This document shows positions 4,417 to 29,054 of a stretch of 64,000 nt of DNA, in pieces. Source of the stretch: Gammaproteobacteria bacterium (lineage in GTDB: Bacteria > Pseudomonadota > Gammaproteobacteria > Eutrophobiales > Eutrophobiaceae). How positions within the stretch are numbered: the stretch's first letter is position 1; the number at the start of each line of letters is the position of its first letter. A program made the position numbers and the translations under genes. The notes below the pieces were generated by a model. It did not search any database and was not told the origin of the DNA. It saw only the letters and a list, made by a program, of their open reading frames with translations. The DNA lies in the NCBI GenBank assembly GCA_965222155.1, contig CBDCTH010000012.1, forward strand, positions 3,168,001 through 3,232,000, written 5' to 3'.

Positions 4417-5250
4417 ATGTCCGTCAAAGACGAGTTGCTAAGCCTGGTGGAAACCGTGGCGGAAAGTACGGAGCTTCCGCTGATTGACTGGGTATTTATC
4501 CCGGAGCCCAACCCCGGTCCGGGACGTAATACCGAATTCGGCATCGTCACGCTTCAGGACGGTTCCGCCGGTCTTTACTATGCCTGGCTGGGCGATTCAC
4601 AGAAGGGCATGGGCAGCCGCTATGAGCCCGATGAGTTTATCGGCAGGCATCCCGTTGAACTGGTGCGGTATTGCGCGGGTGACGACGAGGCGGATTGCTC
4701 TCTGGGACTGGCTGCCATCAACGCCATCACCCGGTATATTTACCGGAAGGCGGATTTCAGTCCGCAGGACGCGCCGGATTCAATGGGCATACTGGATATT
4801 TCCGCCGCTGACCACGTCGGTATGGTGGGGTATTTCCCCTCCCTGGTACGGCGGCTCAAAAATCAGGGCATTAAACTGACGGTCATCGAAAAAAAGCAGC
4901 AATTCCATAAGCAACAGGAGAGTTTCACGGTTACTGCAGACGCGGCCATGCTGGGTGACTGCAACAAGGTGATCATTACGGCATCCACCTTGCTGAATAA
5001 TTCAATTGATGAAGTGCTGGCTTATTCGGGACGGGCGCAGAGGCGGGTGATAATCGGTCCGACTGCCGGTTTTTTTCCGGACCCGTTGTTTGCGCAAGGC
5101 ATCTCTGCACTCGGGGGTTCAGAGATCCGAGCCGCTGAACAGGCACGGCAGCGGTTAAGCACAAACCAGGGCCTGGGGGAGAGCGCCCGTAAATTTTTAA
5201 TCGCTGAACCTGAATACCCTGGACTGGAGCAGATAATGCAGGGTTTGTGA
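4417..5250 (+). CDS. DUF364-type Rossmann-like domain protein
   Basis: GLAAINA, VGMVGYFP, ITASTLLNNSID, IGPT motifs; start moved to ATG 4417. Confidence 0.8.
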   Translation: MSVKDELLSLVETVAESTELPLIDWVFIPEPNPGPGRNTEFGIVTLQDGSAGLYYAWLGDSQKGMGSRYEPDEFIGRHPVELVRYCAGDDEADCSLGLAAINAITRYIYRKADFSPQDAPDSMGILDISAADHVGMVGYFPSLVRRLKNQGIKLTVIEKKQQFHKQQESFTVTADAAMLGDCNKVIITASTLLNNSIDEVLAYSGRAQRRVIIGPTAGFFPDPLFAQGISALGGSEIRAAEQARQRLSTNQGLGESARKFLIAEPEYPGLEQIMQGL

Positions 5251-5253
5251 CCC

Positions 5254-5397
5254 CAAATATCACTGTTCCAATCGCAGACAGACGCCCGACACGCTTTCCA
5301 GCTTGCGTTTGACCAGGAGTACGTGGAGCGGGATTGTTTTGGGCACCAAAACCTAATCATCGTACCGGCCAGAACATTTCTGGCGCAGCTGGTCTAG
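5254..5397 (+). pseudogene. Orphan C-terminal remnant, resembling the end of AAA+/DUF4143 ATP-binding proteins
   Basis: Start-less frame QISLFQSQTDARHAFQLAFDQEYVERDCF...VPARTFLAQLV*. Confidence 0.45.
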
Positions 5398-5713
5398 CTC
5401 GCATATCTCACCAATGGATGCGATGATCGCGCCGGATTTTTGCGGCTGGCAGGTGCCTGCGACCGAAAGCATAGTGGTGGCTCTGGTTGAGGGACAAATT
5501 GTCAGGACAGACAATTTGCACGGCGACAGCCGCCCGCAGGGTTGCGCACAGGGATGGGCGCAATGAACACGTGCCTGCCAGCCGCAAAAAGACAAGCGAG
5601 GGCGCATCCAGCGCAGTGTGTGATGGTAGTAAAAGTGATATGATCACTGTAGCTTATTGACAGCAAAGAGTTTTCCGTTGATGACAAGCGAATTGGTGAG
5701 ATATGCGGGCTAG
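5394..5713. mobile_element. MITE family A, copy 1 (opposite orientation; carries a 72-bp internal insert)
   Basis: TIRs ctagctcgcatatctcaccaat / attggtgagatatgcgggctag; internal homology to 14782-15042 and 19146-19391. Confidence 0.85.
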
Positions 5714-5839
5714 GCGTGAATCAATTGGAATAATAAGCCGGCTCTGCCTTAGCGCCTGCCGGTGCAGGATTCGTCGGTGCTGTAACCGACTGGATTCCCG
5801 CGTAAATGAGGGTGGCCCTGTAAGCACCGGAGGGCTGTC

Positions 5840-7654
5840 TTATCGCAGGTATTCTTCAGTGTAGAGTAAGAGTTCGATGAGACGCTCAAGCAACTGTTCG
5901 CGGGGCAGGCCGGGGAAATTCTTGTTGATCATTTCTTTAGCGAAAAGCCGGGTGATGTAGCGTAATTTCAGCGCCTTGGACTTTTTCGAGGCGAAAATGA
6001 AGTCGCGGTGGCCGTTGTTGACGACGATAAGGTTCTGGTCGGCGTCATAGCGCGAACGCCAGAGTTGTCCCGGCGCATGATCAAAGGTGTAGCCTGGTAA
6101 TCCGTGACGGCTGCCTGAACGTTCTTTTGTGTCGGGGAGTAACGAGTCGGTAACCGTAATGAGGGCTTCGGCCGCGCAGACGGTTTCATTTTGTGCCGCA
6201 GTGACGCCGATGCGCACCAGTCCCGGCTCATCGTGCGCGTGATAGGTCACAAACTCAGAACCGGCTTCATCCAGGTCGCCCGCGCCTTCCAGAATGCGCC
6301 AGGAAATGCTCAGGTTCTCTTCGATCATGTTGCTGTTTCGGTCGCGAGCAATTGCCCTGAGTTTACGGGAATTGCCGACAGCCAGGGCGCATGTACTTGG
6401 TGAAATTCGTACGCTGTGAAGCGGCCCGGCATATTCAAAAAACTGTTTCTGGCGGTTCGCTAACTCATTATTTAACTCTGTGACGGGCAATGCGCTCACA
6501 CTCTCATCATCTTGCTCTCCTGCCTTTGCCGACCCGCCCGTTGGGGCAGCCCGTTTGCGGATATTAATATCAAACCAATCATATTCTTCTGCCGGCAATG
6601 CCAGCATCGCCTCGCGGAAAGCACGCCGGATGGCGCGCAAAGTGTCACGACTGGTGCGTTCTTCTTCCGCGTACTTCTGTTCCTCAATGATCTCCGTCAG
6701 CTTTTTCGCCACCGGCAGCATGGATTGCACAAAGGACTCGAACAGTTCGTCCTGGATAATCCCGGTCCGTGTTGACGGTGTAAGGCTCAGAAACGGCGCG
6801 TCCACGATGCCTTGCAGAAATCTCTCATTCCAGGGAGGACATTGAAAGGTGTCCAGCTGAGTCAGCGAGCTCAGAATGCGCGTTCCTGACCGATACAATC
6901 CTACCTCGTTTTCAGCCTCGGACTCGTTCAGGTACAACTCGGTATAGATATCGCCATGCATGCTTTTGGCTTCCGGCAGGTTATGCAGCAGTTGCCCGGT
7001 AAAATCGCGCGGCTTGACGCTGTACTCTTTGCGCGCCTGGCGGTCGATTACCTTGATATGTACGCCGGATTGTCGAATCCGTTCCCGTAGTTCCGAGGCG
7101 AGGTACCACTGGATCTTCTCACCGCTTAACTGGCGGATACCCGGGAGTAAGGGCCTTATTTTGAGCCGGGTTCCAGGCTCCGGGATGAGCGTGCGCCGCT
7201 TTACAATACTATAGCTTGGATCCCCTTTACGCATCCGCATTTCATATATGGTTTCGTCGGCGCCGGCCGAACTCATGGCAAGTTCCTCCCCCACAGTCCA
7301 GAAACTCAGCAGTCCGATTCCGAACTCGCCCTGAATAGCCCGATCGCCGTCAAGCTTTAGCCGGCGTTTGATGGAATCACAGATATGGGTGCCGACGAAA
7401 TGAAAGTCGGGGATCCCTTCCTGGGTTCTTGGTACGCCTTCGCCGTCATCGGCAACCATGAGGAAATGTTCTTTCTGTTCACGCCCCCGGGTAATGGTTA
7501 CCCGCCTTGCCCGGGCATCGATGCTGTTTTCGACAAACTCGGCGATGGCCTTGAGCGGGTTTTCCTGTGACAGGGCAATAATGGTGATCGCATTCCATGC
7601 GTCACCAATCTTGAGGCGTCCGGAATCCTTATTTCGTGAAGACCTGCGATTCAC
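5840..7654 (-). CDS. GHKL (MORC/Hsp90-like) ATPase with C-terminal Ig-like segment
   Basis: AEFVENSIDA, DDGEG, GEFGIGLLSF, GT boxes of the GHKL fold; beta-rich VRISP...ISW...G...YHA segment. Confidence 0.75.
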   Translation of the reverse strand: MNRRSSRNKDSGRLKIGDAWNAITIIALSQENPLKAIAEFVENSIDARARRVTITRGREQKEHFLMVADDGEGVPRTQEGIPDFHFVGTHICDSIKRRLKLDGDRAIQGEFGIGLLSFWTVGEELAMSSAGADETIYEMRMRKGDPSYSIVKRRTLIPEPGTRLKIRPLLPGIRQLSGEKIQWYLASELRERIRQSGVHIKVIDRQARKEYSVKPRDFTGQLLHNLPEAKSMHGDIYTELYLNESEAENEVGLYRSGTRILSSLTQLDTFQCPPWNERFLQGIVDAPFLSLTPSTRTGIIQDELFESFVQSMLPVAKKLTEIIEEQKYAEEERTSRDTLRAIRRAFREAMLALPAEEYDWFDINIRKRAAPTGGSAKAGEQDDESVSALPVTELNNELANRQKQFFEYAGPLHSVRISPSTCALAVGNSRKLRAIARDRNSNMIEENLSISWRILEGAGDLDEAGSEFVTYHAHDEPGLVRIGVTAAQNETVCAAEALITVTDSLLPDTKERSGSRHGLPGYTFDHAPGQLWRSRYDADQNLIVVNNGHRDFIFASKKSKALKLRYITRLFAKEMINKNFPGLPREQLLERLIELLLYTEEYLR

Positions 7655-7712
7655 TATGAAGTATTACAAAATTGTACCCGGGCGCCGCACGACACATACG
7701 CGCAGGGTTTTT

Positions 7713-8444
7713 TCAACTGTGCTGATTCGTGTCATCCGTAGATGTCCCCTGTTCCAGTTTTTTCTTCAACTCCTCCATTTCCTCGTCCACCTTGTGCATG
7801 TGGTCAAGCAAGGCGTCGATGGTGTTCTGGACCGGGTCGGGCATGTCCTGGCTGCCGCCATAGGCGTCAAAACCGATTTTCCTGGCCATGGCTTCCCGTT
7901 GCGCTTTTTTCAATTTCTCTTCGGCGCGCGATTCCCGCACCATCACGCGTCCCGGTATGCCGACCACGGTGGCATCGTCAGGCACGTCCTTCACCACCAC
8001 CGCGTTGGAACCGATCCTGGCGTTAGCGCCCAGGGTGATGGGCCCCAGCACCTTGGCGCCGGCGCCGATGATGACGCCGTCTTTCAGGGTCGGGTGGCGT
8101 TTCCCTTTTTGCCAGGTTGTGCCGCCCAGGGTGACGCCGTGATAAATGGAGCAGTCATCGCCGATCTCCGACGTTTCGCCGATGACGATGCCCATGCCGT
8201 GGTCAATGAAAAGCCGACAGCCTAAATTGGCCCCGGGATGGATCTCAACGCCTGTAAGGAAACGCGACAGGTGCGCGCTGAAACGGGCGAACAGGTAGAG
8301 CTTTTTTGTCCACAGCCAGTGATTCAGGCGATGCAACAGGATCGCATGGAAGCCGGGGCAGGCTATCAGCGTTTCCAGCGCGCTGCGGGAAGCCGGGTCT
8401 CGCTCAAAGACCACCTTTATATCTTCTTTTATGGTTTCAAACAT
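7713..8444 (-). CDS. cysE: Serine O-acetyltransferase
   Basis: ERDPA, EIHPGA, FIDHGMG, GVTLGGT, KRHPT hexapeptide repeats; start moved to ATG 8444. Confidence 0.95.
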
Positions 8445-24991: not shown

Positions 24992-25063
24992 AGCAAGGTT
25001 GTATTCAAAGATTGATCTGCTCCGCCATCATTACCTGACCCTGGTAGAGAGTGATACGGTTGT

Positions 25064-25078
25064 TTGGTGCCGGGAGAG
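25064..25078. repeat. att-like direct repeat of the tRNA-Leu 3' end
   Basis: ttggtgccgggagag is identical at 25064-25078 and 28967-28981. Confidence 0.85.
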
Positions 25079-25572
25079 GGATTAGAAATATTTATACAAC
25101 GTATTGATTATATTTGTATTTCTATTATATCTACTAGGCTCTCCCCACAATATTCCCAACATAATAATAAATACATACGTGTGTATAACCACTTGTTTCC
25201 CATGTTTGCATGCTAGGTCTGCAATTGTGAGAAGACGATAATTAGCTATACATGCAACTAAATATCCGCTAGTTAAACGGATCTGCGGTTTAATCTCAGT
25301 AACTTAAATGTCGGTAAGTAGTAATTGCGATATGTAGAACTAAATATTACGAGAACAGCGCACCAAGACAGGTACCATTAAGAATTCTGGGTAGTAGATT
25401 CAGTTCAAAATTCACTTTTTTGTGTGTGCCACGGTTTATTAGGTGGTTAAACAAGTCTGGTATTTTGCAAAAGTTTAATTTATTGTTTTTACTATATTAG
25501 GTATGTAGAATATCCAAAAGCGAGGCCTGTCTATTCGTATCTATACGATTTTTCTATAAAAATTTTGATTCA

Positions 25573-25932
25573 ATGACTCAGAAATCTCAAACTAGAGGAA
25601 ATGGTGGCGTAAAGCTTCCTGAACGAGTTAAATTCCATTATTTAAAAGCTACGCATTTCAGAACTATACATGCAGATGGTGCTATCGGTAATATTACGCC
25701 TGCGGGTTACATCCATATGGCAATGTATAATGAGCGGCCCGCAATACCACGGGAATTAGTTCATAAAATAAATCCTGATGGGACTTTGGGTGAAATCATA
25801 CCGGAGGAGACAGTTGACCGCGGAGGAATAGTAAGAGAAATGGAAGTAGATGTATTAATGAGTGTTGAAGTTACAAGAAGTATAATAAATTGGCTGGAAG
25901 ATAAAATAAAATCGATTGAAAAAAGGAAATAA
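25573..25932 (+). CDS. Hypothetical protein (island cassette gene 1)
   Basis: Intact AT-rich 119-aa ORF; FRTIHADGAIG...YNERPAIP...VREMEVDVLMS. Confidence 0.8.
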   Translation: MTQKSQTRGNGGVKLPERVKFHYLKATHFRTIHADGAIGNITPAGYIHMAMYNERPAIPRELVHKINPDGTLGEIIPEETVDRGGIVREMEVDVLMSVEVTRSIINWLEDKIKSIEKRK

Positions 25933-25959
25933 TTAAATCATCAAAAGAGTGAGTGAGAT

Positions 25960-26427
25960 ATGAATTATGCCGCGATATTAGAAGTAGACGATTCCAGCCA
26001 GTATCTTTCTGGTGGATTTTGGAGAACCATTACACGTCCAGAGCCAGCAAAAATTAGAACTAAATCAATAGCTCCTACTCTTGTCCCAAATTATCGAAAA
26101 ACAGTACAAAAAGAGGCTGAAAATTTTGAAAATGAAGTGAAGTTTTTAATCGAACGATGGACAAATGAAGTTAAGAATATATCTTCATTTTCAGATATGG
26201 TTTCGCATAAAGATTATAAAACTATCTCAGCTAAAGGCAGTGGGGTTATTCCTATTTTGTTAAATGAATTACGTCACAGGCCTCATTTCTGGTTCGATGC
26301 ATTACAAATACTCATAAAAGCAAATCTGGGTATTGATGAAGACCCAGTAAATGAAGTGGATCGTGGCGATTTACTTAAAATGGCAGCCGCGTGGATAGCC
26401 TGGGGGGAAGAATACGAGTTAATTTAA
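25960..26427 (+). CDS. Hypothetical helical protein (island cassette gene 2)
   Basis: Intact 155-aa ORF; C-terminal W..E....SS...H..Y..I, IPILLNEL, WFDAL, DPV...DRG, AW..WG pattern. Confidence 0.8.
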   Translation: MNYAAILEVDDSSQYLSGGFWRTITRPEPAKIRTKSIAPTLVPNYRKTVQKEAENFENEVKFLIERWTNEVKNISSFSDMVSHKDYKTISAKGSGVIPILLNELRHRPHFWFDALQILIKANLGIDEDPVNEVDRGDLLKMAAAWIAWGEEYELI

Positions 26428-26431
26428 AAAA

Positions 26432-26860
26432 ATGCCATTGGACACGAAACAGTTTCCTAATGCTTTACAAGGATGCTTCGATAGAAGCCCTGAAAGTAGA
26501 TTCTATAATTGTATAGCTTTCGTAGCGGGGGATACTGCACGCAACTGGTGGCCAAATAGCCGAATGACGTATTGGCCAAAAGATATTCCAGCAAAAGAGA
26601 CAGTTAATTCTTTTCTCAAATTATATCAATATCTTGGATACACAAATTGCAAAGATGGATCGTATGAAAATGGCTTTGAAAAAGTTGCGATATATGCTTT
26701 AAATAAAAAAGTTACACATGCTGCTCGCCAGTTATCCAATGGAAATTGGGAAAGTAAAATTGGACATAATGTGGATATTGAGCATGAGACAGTTGAAAAT
26801 CTTGAGGGGCCGTGTTACGGGACAGCTGTTCGATATCTTAAACGGCCAAAATCAAGCTAG
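26432..26860 (+). CDS. Putative Cys-His (papain/NlpC-P60-like) enzyme, possibly DUF7689-like (island cassette gene 3)
   Basis: YNCIAF (Cys27), THAARQ (His96), WESKIG, DIEH, YG motifs; family name is from recall only. Confidence 0.65.
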   Translation: MPLDTKQFPNALQGCFDRSPESRFYNCIAFVAGDTARNWWPNSRMTYWPKDIPAKETVNSFLKLYQYLGYTNCKDGSYENGFEKVAIYALNKKVTHAARQLSNGNWESKIGHNVDIEHETVENLEGPCYGTAVRYLKRPKSS

Positions 26861-26862
26861 CT

Positions 26863-27558
26863 GGGACTGTAAATATTTCTGTGTAAATCGCCGGTTAAAC
26901 ATAATCAATCAGCCGGTCCTCAAACTCAATGATAAACCGGTTCAGCGCCCCTTTCCCGTTACGGATCGGCATGGTCCATTTTTTTGAAGCATCCATGACC
27001 GCCAGGTAGACGACCTTCCTGGTCGAATCGTCCGAGGGGAACAGCTTGCGCTTCTTGATGGCTTTGCGGATCACGCTGTTCAGGGATTCGACCGCATTGG
27101 TCGACTAGATCGCTTTACGAATGTCTTCCGGATAGCGGAACAGGGTGTTCAGGTTGTGCCAGTGATGGCGCCAGGTTCGACTGATATGGGGATATTTCTC
27201 ATCCCAGCGTGCCGCAAACTGGTCCAGCGCCAACAGCGCCTCGTCCTCGGTGGCCGATTGGTAGATCCGCTTTAACTCTGCGCTGACGGCCTTGTAGTCC
27301 TTCCAGGGTACATACTTCATGGAATTGCGTACCCTGTGCACAATACAGCGCTGAATCTGCGTAGCCGGGAAGACGCTGTTGATGGCATCGGGGAATCCCT
27401 TTAGCCCATCCACGCAGGCAATCAGGATGTCCTTCACCCCGCGATTCTGCAGCTCTGTGAGGATAGCCAGCCAGCATTTGGCCCCCTCACTCTCGGCCAG
27501 CCACAGCCCCAGTCACGCCTTGTAACCCGCCAGATTCACCCCCAGCGCCAGGTAGATC
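26863..27558 (-). mobile_element. IS256-family remnant (3' half of transposase plus one end)
   Basis: DILIACVDGLKGFPDAI, QRCIVH, YPEDIRKAI; internal stop; end gggactgtaaatatttctgtgtaa. Confidence 0.9.
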
Positions 27559-28866
27559 GTCGTCCCTGAAAAACCCGATAATTCATTATAACTCATTGAT
27601 CATATTGACGTAAGTTGTATTTATTCCTGGACTGATATTGCCGGTTTTGGTATCATGGGTCTTCATTTTCTTGCACTATCGGAGGCAAAAATGATGCCCA
27701 GGCACGCTGACGCTGATACCCGCACCGCCACCGACCTGTTCCGCGAACGACTGGACACTATGCTCAACCCACGGCATCCGTTATAGCGCCTGGCCGATCG
27801 GGTGGACTGGTCGGTGTTGGACAAGGCATTCGGCTCGCTGTAGTGCCCGGACAACGGCGGTCCGGGGACACCGACGCGGGTGAGGGTGGGGTTGCTCTAT
27901 CTCAAGCATAGGTACGGGTTATCCGATGCGGCGGTGGTGTCGGGCTGGGTGGAGAATCCGTACTGGCAGTCTGTCTGCGGGGCGGTGTACTTTCAGCACG
28001 AGGCGCCGCTAGACCCGAGCAGTGTGACGCGGTATCGCCAACGCATCGGTGAGACGGGCTGTGAGCGGCTGTTGCAGGTGACGGTGGCGGCGGGGGTGCA
28101 GCGCGGGACAGTGACGCCCCGTAACGTCAAGCGGGTGACGGTGGACACCCCGGTACCGGAGCAGGCGGTGAGTTATGCGACCGACAGCAAGCTGTTGAAC
28201 CGGTCACGAGCGCGTCGGGTACGGTGATGTCGCAAGCAGGGGGTCACAGTACGTCAGAGCACTGCCCGCCAGGGACCCAAGGCGCTGCAACAGGCCAAGC
28301 GCTACGCTCATGCGAAACAGTACCGGCGACTGCGGCGTTGCGTGAAGCGCTTACGCACCTGCCTGGGCCGGGGAGTGCGTGACAGTGACCGTAAAACCGC
28401 GGATAACAAGGCACAGCAGGCGCTGTTTGCGGACGAGTTGGCCCTGGCCAAGCGACTGCTGGTGCAACAGAAACAGGCTAAAAATAAGCGGTACTCCCTG
28501 CACGCCCCGGAGGTGGCGTGCATCAGCAAGGGGACAGTGGCGAAGCGGTATGACAAATCGTCAAGACAGACGATTTGCACGGCGCAAGCCGCCCGCAGGG
28601 TTGCGCCCAGAGCCTGCCCCCCTGCTTACAACCGCAGGGGCAAGCTCTGTATGGAGTTGAGCAGGGGGAGGGGCGCAATGAATTCGGGGTGAAGGCGAGT
28701 AGTGCCACGACGAACAAGAGCAACGTTGTCGTGGGCGGTAGGGCCGTGCCGGGCAACCCCTATGACGGGCACACCTTGAAGACGGCCCTGGCACAGGTGC
28801 GGCGCTTGACCGGGACAAGTAGTGACGAGGCGTTTGTGGACAGCGGCTATCGGGGGCATGATAATG
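27559..28866 (+). mobile_element. Degenerate IS5-family element abutting the IS256 remnant
   Basis: IR gtcgtccctgaaaaaccc; WVENPYWQ, YSLHAPEV, EFGVK, GNPYDGHTL, VDSGYRGH; internal stops and a 128-bp insert. Confidence 0.88.
28552..28679. repeat. 72-bp structured module with 56 bp of nested mini-repeats, inserted into the IS5 transposase
   Basis: Homologous to 5493-5564; removing it restores the reading KRY-EFGVK. Confidence 0.8.
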
Positions 28867-28967
28867 GATAGAAGATGTCAAGAACTGATGAGAGAATAAT
28901 TATCAATAAAAAATAATAGTTTATATGACATAAACAGGACTTTATGAAAGACTATAAAACAGAGAAT

Positions 28968-29054
28968 TGGTGCCGGGAGAGAGACTCGAACTCTCACTCT
29001 GTTGCCAGAACCGGATTTTGAGTCCGGCGCGTCTACCAGTTCCGCCACCCCGGC
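28968..29054 (-). tRNA. tRNA-Leu (anticodon CAA)
   Basis: GCCGGGGTGGCGGAACTGGTAGACGCG...CT-CAA-AA, long variable arm, GTTCGAGTC, CCA end; 87 nt. Confidence 0.96.

Follow-up and report, generated by a model that had tools for sequence, protein, structure and literature searches.

The cassette that concerns us here, a run of three small co-directional open reading frames (ORF1, ORF2 and ORF3), lies in a stretch of 64,000 nucleotides (the window: positions 3,168,001 to 3,232,000 on the forward strand of contig CBDCTH010000012.1, assembly GCA_965222155.1) from a gammaproteobacterium of the Eutrophobiaceae. All three frames are on the plus strand (25573-25932, 119 amino acids (aa); 25960-26427, 155 aa; 26432-26860, 142 aa) and are separated by gaps of 27 bases between ORF1 and ORF2 and 4 bases between ORF2 and ORF3, exactly as a first-pass annotation of this DNA had placed them. 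Since each has many homologues, they are genuine genes rather than chance open frames. Our main concern is the relation between the last two, ORF3 being a likely papain-fold enzyme and ORF2 its putative masking partner, a pair that recommends itself as a candidate toxin-antidote or phage-defence module of a new kind.

The GC content is 0.36-0.385 over 25001-27000, compared with about 0.49-0.60 in the flanks. The 3' end of a tRNA-Leu gene is repeated as a 24-nucleotide direct copy on the far side of the cassette (25064-25087 against 28967-28990, 21 of 24 positions, or 88%, identical), and since this repeat and the tRNA gene bound the region, we consider it to be an island of about 3.9 kb inserted at the tRNA. 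The remainder of the island consists of transposase fragments only, and no integrase was seen among the listed ORFs of the window; the AT-rich tRNA island with decayed insertion sequence (IS) neighbours that had been described earlier is thus recovered. The features are as follows.

25064..25087, no strand assigned: left island boundary, the 24-nucleotide direct repeat of the tRNA-Leu 3' end (repeat comparison, 88% identical)
25573..25932, plus strand: ORF1, 119 aa, probable divergent DUF3467-like protein and proposed optional accessory (12 of 31 aligned relatives match PF11950)
25960..26427, plus strand: ORF2, 155 aa, N-terminal residues 1-44 variable; helical C-terminal domain (about 55-155) conserved and predicted to dock over the active site of ORF3
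26432..26860, plus strand: ORF3, 142 aa, DUF7689 (E 2.7e-38), likely papain-fold enzyme with invariant Cys27, His96 and Asp115
26895..27437, minus strand: IS256-type (Mutator family) transposase fragments (PF00872 Transposase_mut, E 9.1e-28, profile positions 224-332 of 379 only)
26963..26977, plus strand: terminator-like hairpin followed by a T run, 3' of ORF3 (consensus match only; 2 sites against 1.8 expected)
27880..28870, plus strand: IS5-like transposase fragments, DUF772 and DDE_Tnp_1 in separate ORFs (PF05598, E 3.2e-10; PF01609, E 1e-4)
28968..29054, minus strand: tRNA-Leu(CAA), integration target and right island boundary

ORF3 belongs to the Pfam family DUF7689 (PF24738), which it matches with 131.7 bits (cut-off 22.6) over residues 19-137, corresponding to positions 4-118 of the 118 in the profile. 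This family, the function of which is unknown, is the only one in Pfam that matches ORF3 at E ≤ 1, so that neither NLPC_P60 nor CHAP nor related sequence families are found at this level; likewise PADLOC and PHROGs return nothing, and NCBIfam gives no more than pheS at chance level (E 0.12; 11.5 bits, cut-off 237.45). The earlier statement that the genes match no recognised toxin-antitoxin or defence family holds in so far as none of the three ORFs has a PADLOC family; ORF3 does have a family, DUF7689. Among 202 candidates from a word-seeded search, 197 are relatives of ORF3 at E ≤ 0.001, all of about 100-200 aa and each, where the source gives a name, called 'hypothetical protein'; a search of longer proteins, which is weak evidence in this respect, yielded no longer or fused forms. 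The motifs of ORF3 are YNC27, WWP, TH96AARQ, WESK (WxSKxG) and DIEH, three of which (YNC27, TH96AARQ and WESK) had already been picked out in the first-pass annotation. Cys27, His96 and Asp115 are invariant in all 38 aligned homologues, as are Y25, N26, W48, P49, G69, E79, Q100, W106, K109, G111, Y129, G130 and R138. The N-terminus, read from the translation, contains no hydrophobic stretch and hence no apparent signal peptide, again as noted before. A 169-nucleotide contig from a sponge metatranscriptome library matches 26643-26811, within ORF3, with 2 differences, and DNA from the same sample also contains parts of the cassette; because such a library may contain DNA, the contig alone gives no evidence of transcription.

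The AlphaFold model of ORF3 is a confident one (mean predicted local distance difference test score, pLDDT, 92.3; predicted template modelling score, pTM, 0.87). In it a helix spanning residues 27-32 begins at Cys27 and His96 lies within the strand 93-100; a cysteine at the start of a helix together with a histidine in a strand corresponds to the arrangement of the papain fold. An exhaustive VIA fold search against 48,161 chains gave 10 with Z ≥ 5, and all 50 of the matches listed are papain-fold cysteine peptidases or catalytically inactive relatives of these, including AvrPphB, NlpC/P60, CHAP endolysins, staphopains, CdiA-CT, C39 domains and Josephin. AvrPphB scores highest (1ukf_A, Z 6.3, root-mean-square deviation 3.4, 118 residues aligned). 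The previously proposed papain-like Cys-His assignment therefore agrees with the conservation within DUF7689, with the model and with the fold search, the scores of the last being weak, and we regard ORF3 as a papain-fold protein at the level of the fold only, likely with a Cys27-His96-Asp115 centre.

The gene that precedes DUF7689 is considered next. A scan of one genome per species gave 574 pattern matches, of which 548 encode a relative, and the best 79 distinct loci were kept; these come from more than 15 phyla and represent the higher-scoring part of the family rather than a random sample. In 75 of the 79 an ORF2 homologue was found by tblastn directly upstream of DUF7689 on the same strand, and clustering combined with profile searches added L030, L080 and a decayed remnant in L038, bringing the total to 78; in the remaining one, L073, the contig itself begins just ahead of ORF3. 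Across the loci the two genes abut or overlap. In a sample of 301 genomes from the phylum of the window, the DUF7689 and ORF2 profiles match the identical 3 genomes, adjacent in each, and the other 298 have neither. The expectation that gene order would be kept among homologues was thus borne out for ORF2 and ORF3, and not for ORF1, which is present in only 9 of the 79 loci.

ORF2 itself is less easily placed. It has no match in Pfam, NCBIfam or PADLOC and only chance-level ones among the PHROGs (E 0.027 and 0.18), and neither sequence searches of the PDB with each of the three ORFs nor searches of PDB sequences with the ORF1 and ORF2 profiles gave anything below E 0.1; for ORF1 and ORF2 the ESM Atlas returned unnamed clusters only. 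The model of ORF2 has a disordered N-terminus (pLDDT 53-67 for residues 1-40) followed, from residue 45, by a confident domain of six helices (blocks with pLDDT of 87-98), which contains the conserved tryptophans W67, W111, W145 and W148. This agrees with the low-complexity N-terminus and the tryptophan-rich helical C-terminal domain reported earlier. Foldseek finds nothing below E 1 for this domain, and its VIA neighbours, helical proteins at Z ≤ 6.0, are at the noise level for helical bundles, so no fold is assigned; a resemblance to HEAT-type repeats is an impression only.

The family of the ORF2 domain is nevertheless a very large one. Searched against 1.84 billion cluster representatives, taken at 50% identity, its profile gives 10,652 matches at E ≤ 0.001, of which 8,650 reach E ≤ 1e-10, and in spite of more than 10,000 representatives Pfam holds no model for it. 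Environmental phyla that have been little studied, among them Planctomycetota, Acidobacteriota, Cyanobacteriota, Nitrospirota and Chloroflexota, commonly carry it. In nearly all of the 150 matches listed the domain is C-terminal, behind N-terminal regions of 0-150 aa, and in a few of the top ones it occurs twice or near the N-terminus. The N-terminal part also differs over short distances. In the diverged cassette of another organism (run X3), the stretch corresponding to 25973-26111 has the same length as in the window and cannot be aligned with it, the flanks on either side being alike, and therefore the ORF2 N-terminus varies between close relatives. One of 74 ORF2 homologues, in an Oscillatoriales locus (L044, 3477-3959), has an N-terminal Phd/YefM match (E 7.9e-4, 19.6 bits) which remains below the cut-off of 29.8.

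The modelled complex of ORF3 with residues 45-155 of ORF2, each with its own alignment and accompanied by three controls, suggests how the two proteins might meet. The interface score (ipSAE, interaction prediction score from aligned errors) is 0.76, 0.74 and 0.76, the best control giving 0.00; the mark used for this score is reached by 116 of 157 solved complexes and by 2 of 215 mismatched pairs, a calibration that is approximate here, own alignments having been used. The runs have at least 97% of contacts in common and the pLDDT of the partners is at least 91. On the ORF3 side the interface comprises residues 26-28 (N26, C27), 93-96 (H96), 36-48 (the conserved WWP...WP loop), 110-113 and 128-129, and on the ORF2 side 71-78 (with the nearly invariant S75 and S76), 108-113 and 128-141 (G136), so that the most conserved residues of both proteins face one another and the partner covers the catalytic pair in the prediction. 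That residues 26-28 and 93-96 of ORF3 belong to a single predicted interface is indirect support for Cys27 and His96 being near one another. The complex model proposed by the first-pass annotation thus places ORF2 over Cys27 and His96, supporting the view that ORF2 binds ORF3 and masks its active site, and, together with the adjacency in 78 loci and the exact co-occurrence, it agrees with the earlier suggestion that ORF2 is the cognate partner of ORF3.

A connection of the pair to restriction comes from relatives in which the ORF2 domain is part of a much larger protein. In a Blastocatellia locus (L036) a 1098-aa type I HsdR protein (HSDR_N, SWI2_SNF2, ResIII and T1R_D3-like domains) ends in the ORF2 domain, and DUF7689 begins 5 bases after this fusion. 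In four genomes of the genus of the window (L082-L085) the domain terminates a long open frame; two of these frames are full-length, encoding proteins of 1728 and 1783 aa with Mrr_cat_2, ResIII and Helicase_C domains that resemble LlaBIII (E 1.1e-44) and LlaGI, both type ISP enzymes, and whose stop is overlapped by DUF7689. The other two frames reach the edge of the retrieved sequence at 480 aa, and behind each of the fusions comes DUF7689. The conserved motifs of the domain are retained in the fused tails. One of the genomes with a type ISP fusion carries a divergent second copy (L106), a single ORF of 285 aa with DUF7689 first and an ORF2-like domain behind it. Restriction-modification genes lie no more than two genes from the pair in 8 of the 79 loci (L006, L012, L036, L037, L045, L052, L053 and L067), HEPN, HicB, AAA_15/21, caspase-iSTAND or IrrE/HTH genes adjoin it in 7 further loci, and IS (IS1595) or phage genes do so in 4, all of these being raw counts, which do not show an enrichment. 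Judged on sequence, the fusions strengthen a defence reading, which would then operate through a guard-like mechanism rather than through a sensor or chaperone.

Some single loci may be mentioned alongside these. In a Latescibacterota genome (L006) a YgjP-like metallopeptidase gene (4643-5371) and a complete HsdR gene (5368-8229), on the minus strand, stand immediately 3' of an ORF1-ORF2-ORF3 cassette. In L111 (G398:C5) a 588-aa ORF on the minus strand (1005-2771) has an HELGH motif, of the kind present in zinc metallopeptidases, and an ORF2 domain at its end and is followed by DUF7689; a metallopeptidase domain was not confirmed in it. A 1010-aa ORF in L042 is regarded as an over-extended frame, having no Pfam match and a 266-aa counterpart in the near-identical L056.

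The distribution of the pair is patchy. DUF7689 occurs in 7 of 22 other genomes of the same genus, in copies only 35-40% identical to that of the window, in none of the 38 genomes searched in other genera, in 2 of the 300 other genomes of the phylum sample and in none of 14 control genomes. In an Acidobacteriota sample the ORF2 domain is present in 12 of 251 genomes (a tally that includes the unpublished genome G407, used for no other result here), and one Blastocatellia genome holds 5 copies of ORF2. IMG/VR contains 16 loci of the family. Decaying copies are also found, an intact ORF2 standing beside a frameshifted ORF3 in L104 (G010) and both genes being decayed, with ORF3 broken in two, in L038. 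On a short contig (L081, G006:C497) two cassettes seem to be in tandem, with ORF3, ORF2 and the start of another ORF3.

Taken together, these data could be accommodated by the following scheme. ORF2 and ORF3 would form an obligate, physically interacting pair, in which ORF3 would act as a papain-fold hydrolase of small size in the cytoplasm, its centre formed by Cys27 and His96 (with Asp115), and would be kept latent by the conserved C-terminal helical domain of ORF2 bound over this centre. Such a pair may behave like a toxin-antidote module linked to anti-phage conflict and would have been acquired horizontally, here on the tRNA-Leu island. In those relatives in which the masking domain forms the C-terminal tail of a restriction enzyme, a disturbance of the guarded protein could free or activate DUF7689, much as PrrC is held latent by EcoprrI. 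A latent papain-fold hydrolase masked by its cognate domain, with toxin-antidote logic and a link to defence, we hold to be an even call. The family assignment, the invariant residues, the obligate pairing, the co-occurrence across genomes and the fusions are much firmer than this functional reading, binding and the masking of the active site being predicted by the model and the toxicity of the pair, its trigger and its role in defence being what we infer from them.

Several observations weigh against the scheme. The fold matches of ORF3 are weak, none of the 48,161 chains reaching Z 8 in the VIA search, and Foldseek gives nothing at E ≤ 0.001, its best NlpC/P60 matches having E 0.09 and a probability of 0.63. 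ORF2 lacks a recognisable DNA-binding domain, none of 74 homologues scanned having a Pfam family above cut-off, and of 52 long representatives 51 are likewise without one, the exception having DUF7387. No family of PADLOC-DB 2.0.0 matches any of the three ORFs at E ≤ 1, and searches of 50,697 phage records and 72,556 plasmid records gave no member of the family. Of the 118 genes that flank the pair most closely, the majority have housekeeping roles or belong to no family, and in the window the cassette has no adjoining restriction gene, ORF2 there standing alone. Finally, a predicted interface over the active site would look identical if ORF2 were a substrate.

The same observations may be read in terms of an accessory enzyme and its adaptor, neither of them toxic. 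The ORF2 domain would then dock a peptidase, amidase or deamidase onto a client, be it a restriction enzyme or a ligand of the variable N-terminus, and the enzyme would process, regulate or protect this client; it might, for instance, destroy anti-restriction proteins or alleviate restriction, and would not kill the cell. The presence of the domain on the C-termini of two classes of restriction enzyme would be expected of such an adaptor, as would variable N-termini on a constant docking domain and the lack of a DNA-binding domain in ORF2, and the many loci amid housekeeping genes, together with the absence of the family from the searched plasmid and phage collections, would suit it as well. 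However, the catalytic Cys and His are not left open in the modelled complex but lie under the interface; moreover a selfish or toxic element would better account for the patchiness, for genomes with multiple copies and for the locus in which ORF3 is a pseudogene and ORF2 is intact. We consider this explanation unlikely, yet deserving of attention.

The first-pass annotation had instead proposed a tripartite module, in which ORF1 would be a chaperone or sensor required by ORF2 and ORF3, and here the evidence on ORF1 has to be considered. The ORF1 of the window has no Pfam match at E ≤ 1; of its 35 relatives from a word-seeded search 31 were aligned, and DUF3467 (PF11950) matches 12 of these, the best at E 2.4e-5. 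One relative carries DUF3467 in its precomputed annotation, and in the Atlas search this family appears at rank 23 only, with a score of 0.83. By this sequence evidence ORF1 is a divergent DUF3467-like protein, DUF3467 being a family with no known function. In the 9 loci in which it precedes ORF2 and ORF3, drawn from several phyla, it abuts or overlaps ORF2 (gaps of -56 to +27 bases). In 14 others, again from several phyla, the same slot is filled by a protein of about 250 aa of the TIGR04255 family, itself of unknown function, often with a 4-base overlap with the ORF2 start (L003, L005, L008, L013, L020, L029, L033, L037, L043, L045, L047, L053, L072 and L076; three members were assigned by scanning, with E 5.8e-43 to 5.8e-21, and the other eleven by clustering with them). 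A 93-aa family occupies the slot in 4 loci, a 237-aa family in 2 and family-less proteins of 220-275 aa in 6, and in the remainder there is nothing conserved. Homology among ORF1, TIGR04255 and the 220-275-aa group was rejected, the hhalign probability being at most 0.3.

Toxin-antitoxin-chaperone systems use a SecB-type chaperone as third component, and an obligate third gene could find support in the conservation of ORF1 next to ORF2 in 9 loci from several phyla, and in the way other loci fill its slot with a different gene, TIGR04255, the 93-aa family or another. Against this, a conserved third gene is missing from many pairs, profile comparison finds no relation among the alternative upstream genes, an ORF1-like gene occurs in one genome (G124) in the absence of the ORF2-ORF3 pair, and no SecB family matches ORF1 or its aligned relatives at E ≤ 1. 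On a quick ORF3 tree the ORF1 label, which needs 7 changes, is scattered (95 of 500 shuffles were as low), and the TIGR04255 label, which needs 6, forms clusters (0 of 500 shuffles were as low); the tree is poorly resolved, with 44 of 71 forks open, and the number of ORF1 gains and losses is not readable from it. Because ORF1 occurs in 9 of the 79 loci and unrelated genes take its place elsewhere, the core is the ORF2-ORF3 pair with an exchangeable upstream gene, not a set of three, and the tripartite module is abandoned in this form. A requirement for ORF1 thus appears improbable, and we propose that it is an optional accessory of this sub-lineage, perhaps an adaptor, chaperone or sensor, outside the core.

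Two further explanations seem to us very improbable. The pair could be an ordinary two-subunit enzyme of metabolism or cell-envelope recycling, on the island here by chance, since the papain/NlpC-P60 fold is common among hydrolases of peptidoglycan peptides and several loci are flanked by housekeeping genes, but ORF3 has no apparent signal peptide, the family is rare and patchy in close relatives and missing from the 14 control genomes, and neither the fusions to restriction enzymes nor the decaying copies would be expected. The faintest prospect of all is a reversed polarity on the model of type VII toxin-antitoxin systems, with ORF2 as the harmful effector neutralised by DUF7689 through cleavage or modification of a loop in its active site, as the substrate-like lodging of the conserved ORF2 loops (S75, S76, G136) in the modelled catalytic cleft and the diversity of the ORF2 N-termini, common in effector domains, might suggest; yet the domain is appended to restriction enzymes that are effectors already, many ORF2 proteins are a domain of about 100 aa with almost no N-terminus, and the intact ORF2 beside a frameshifted ORF3 would be lethal were ORF2 the toxin.

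Returning to the masked hydrolase, its closest functional parallel may be the PrrC anticodon nuclease, which is reported to be kept in a latent state by EcoprrI, a type Ic restriction enzyme (PMC1484252, PMC2610378). A latent cytoplasmic effector is there physically tied to a restriction enzyme and encoded in or next to the restriction-modification locus, and in the relatives described above DUF7689 similarly follows directly on the HsdR and type ISP genes that bear its docking domain. Unlike PrrC, an RNase linked to an ABC ATPase, the effector here would be a papain-fold Cys-His enzyme, and the docking domain is usually a small stand-alone protein, as in the window, the function being in this case one that we infer. 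With type II toxin-antitoxin modules the pair has several features in common: the two genes are small, overlap and run in one direction, with that of the proposed antidote first; the complex is predicted to be tight and to hide the active site; and the distribution is patchy, with several copies per genome and residence on islands. It differs from them in matching no established toxin or antitoxin family, in a partner for which Pfam shows no DNA-binding domain, and in the occurrence of the partner domain as a fusion to large enzymes.

As regards the enzyme, the order of Cys at a helix N-terminus, His in a strand and Asp is that of AvrPphB/YopT (C58), NlpC/P60 and CHAP peptidases, the NlpC/P60 and CHAP entries having Z 5-5.7. 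Unlike these, ORF3 has no match to them at the sequence level and resembles them, with Z under 8, at the level of the fold only; it is a stand-alone and presumably cytoplasmic protein of 142 aa with motifs of its own, not secreted, in which no wall-binding or delivery domains were found. Tse1-Tsi1 and CdiA-CT/CdiI likewise combine a papain-fold enzyme with an adjacent cognate partner (Tse1, 3vpi, Z 4.9; CdiA-CT, 8ssk, Z 5.5). In these systems the toxin leaves the cell and its gene stands ahead of the one for immunity, whereas here there is no sign of export and the partner gene comes first. CapRel is a defence protein in which toxin and antitoxin are fused, and the single 285-aa ORF of L106 recalls this organisation, although the two do not share a fold and fusion is the exception here.

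As a kind of system, a masked toxin or a second line of defence linked to restriction is known; the family of the enzyme, the domain that masks it and the modular way in which this domain is used are not described. The search turned up no paper that names DUF7689 or TIGR04255, although the supplementary tables of defence-system surveys, not covered by it, could mention the module; the literature on DUF3467 gave an unrelated mention only, and no description of the module was found among titles and the beginnings of abstracts. A tentative and bolder generalisation is that DUF7689 and its mask domain might constitute a very large undescribed class of latent cysteine-hydrolase effectors. These would be parked on a portable helical domain of about 100 aa, either alone behind variable N-terminal sensor regions or in the C-termini of type I and type ISP enzymes, and freed when a phage disables or engages the guarded protein, whereupon they could cleave or modify a cellular or phage target in a second-line retaliation similar to that of PrrC, with the upstream genes (DUF3467-like, TIGR04255 and others) tuning the trigger. 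If the masked hydrolase is real, the known range of toxin-antidote and phage-defence modules would be extended by a new class of enzyme, namely a papain-fold hydrolase of the cytoplasm, and by a masking domain that is both new and portable. The HsdR and type ISP fusions make the idea that restriction enzymes may carry a docked second-line effector directly testable, and genetic work on the module should start from its organisation as a pair whose third gene is exchangeable.

Elsewhere in the window, between 40001 and 45000, neighbouring 1-kb bins have GC contents of 0.40, 0.66, 0.62, 0.41 and 0.61, and this could be a further mosaic or foreign region.

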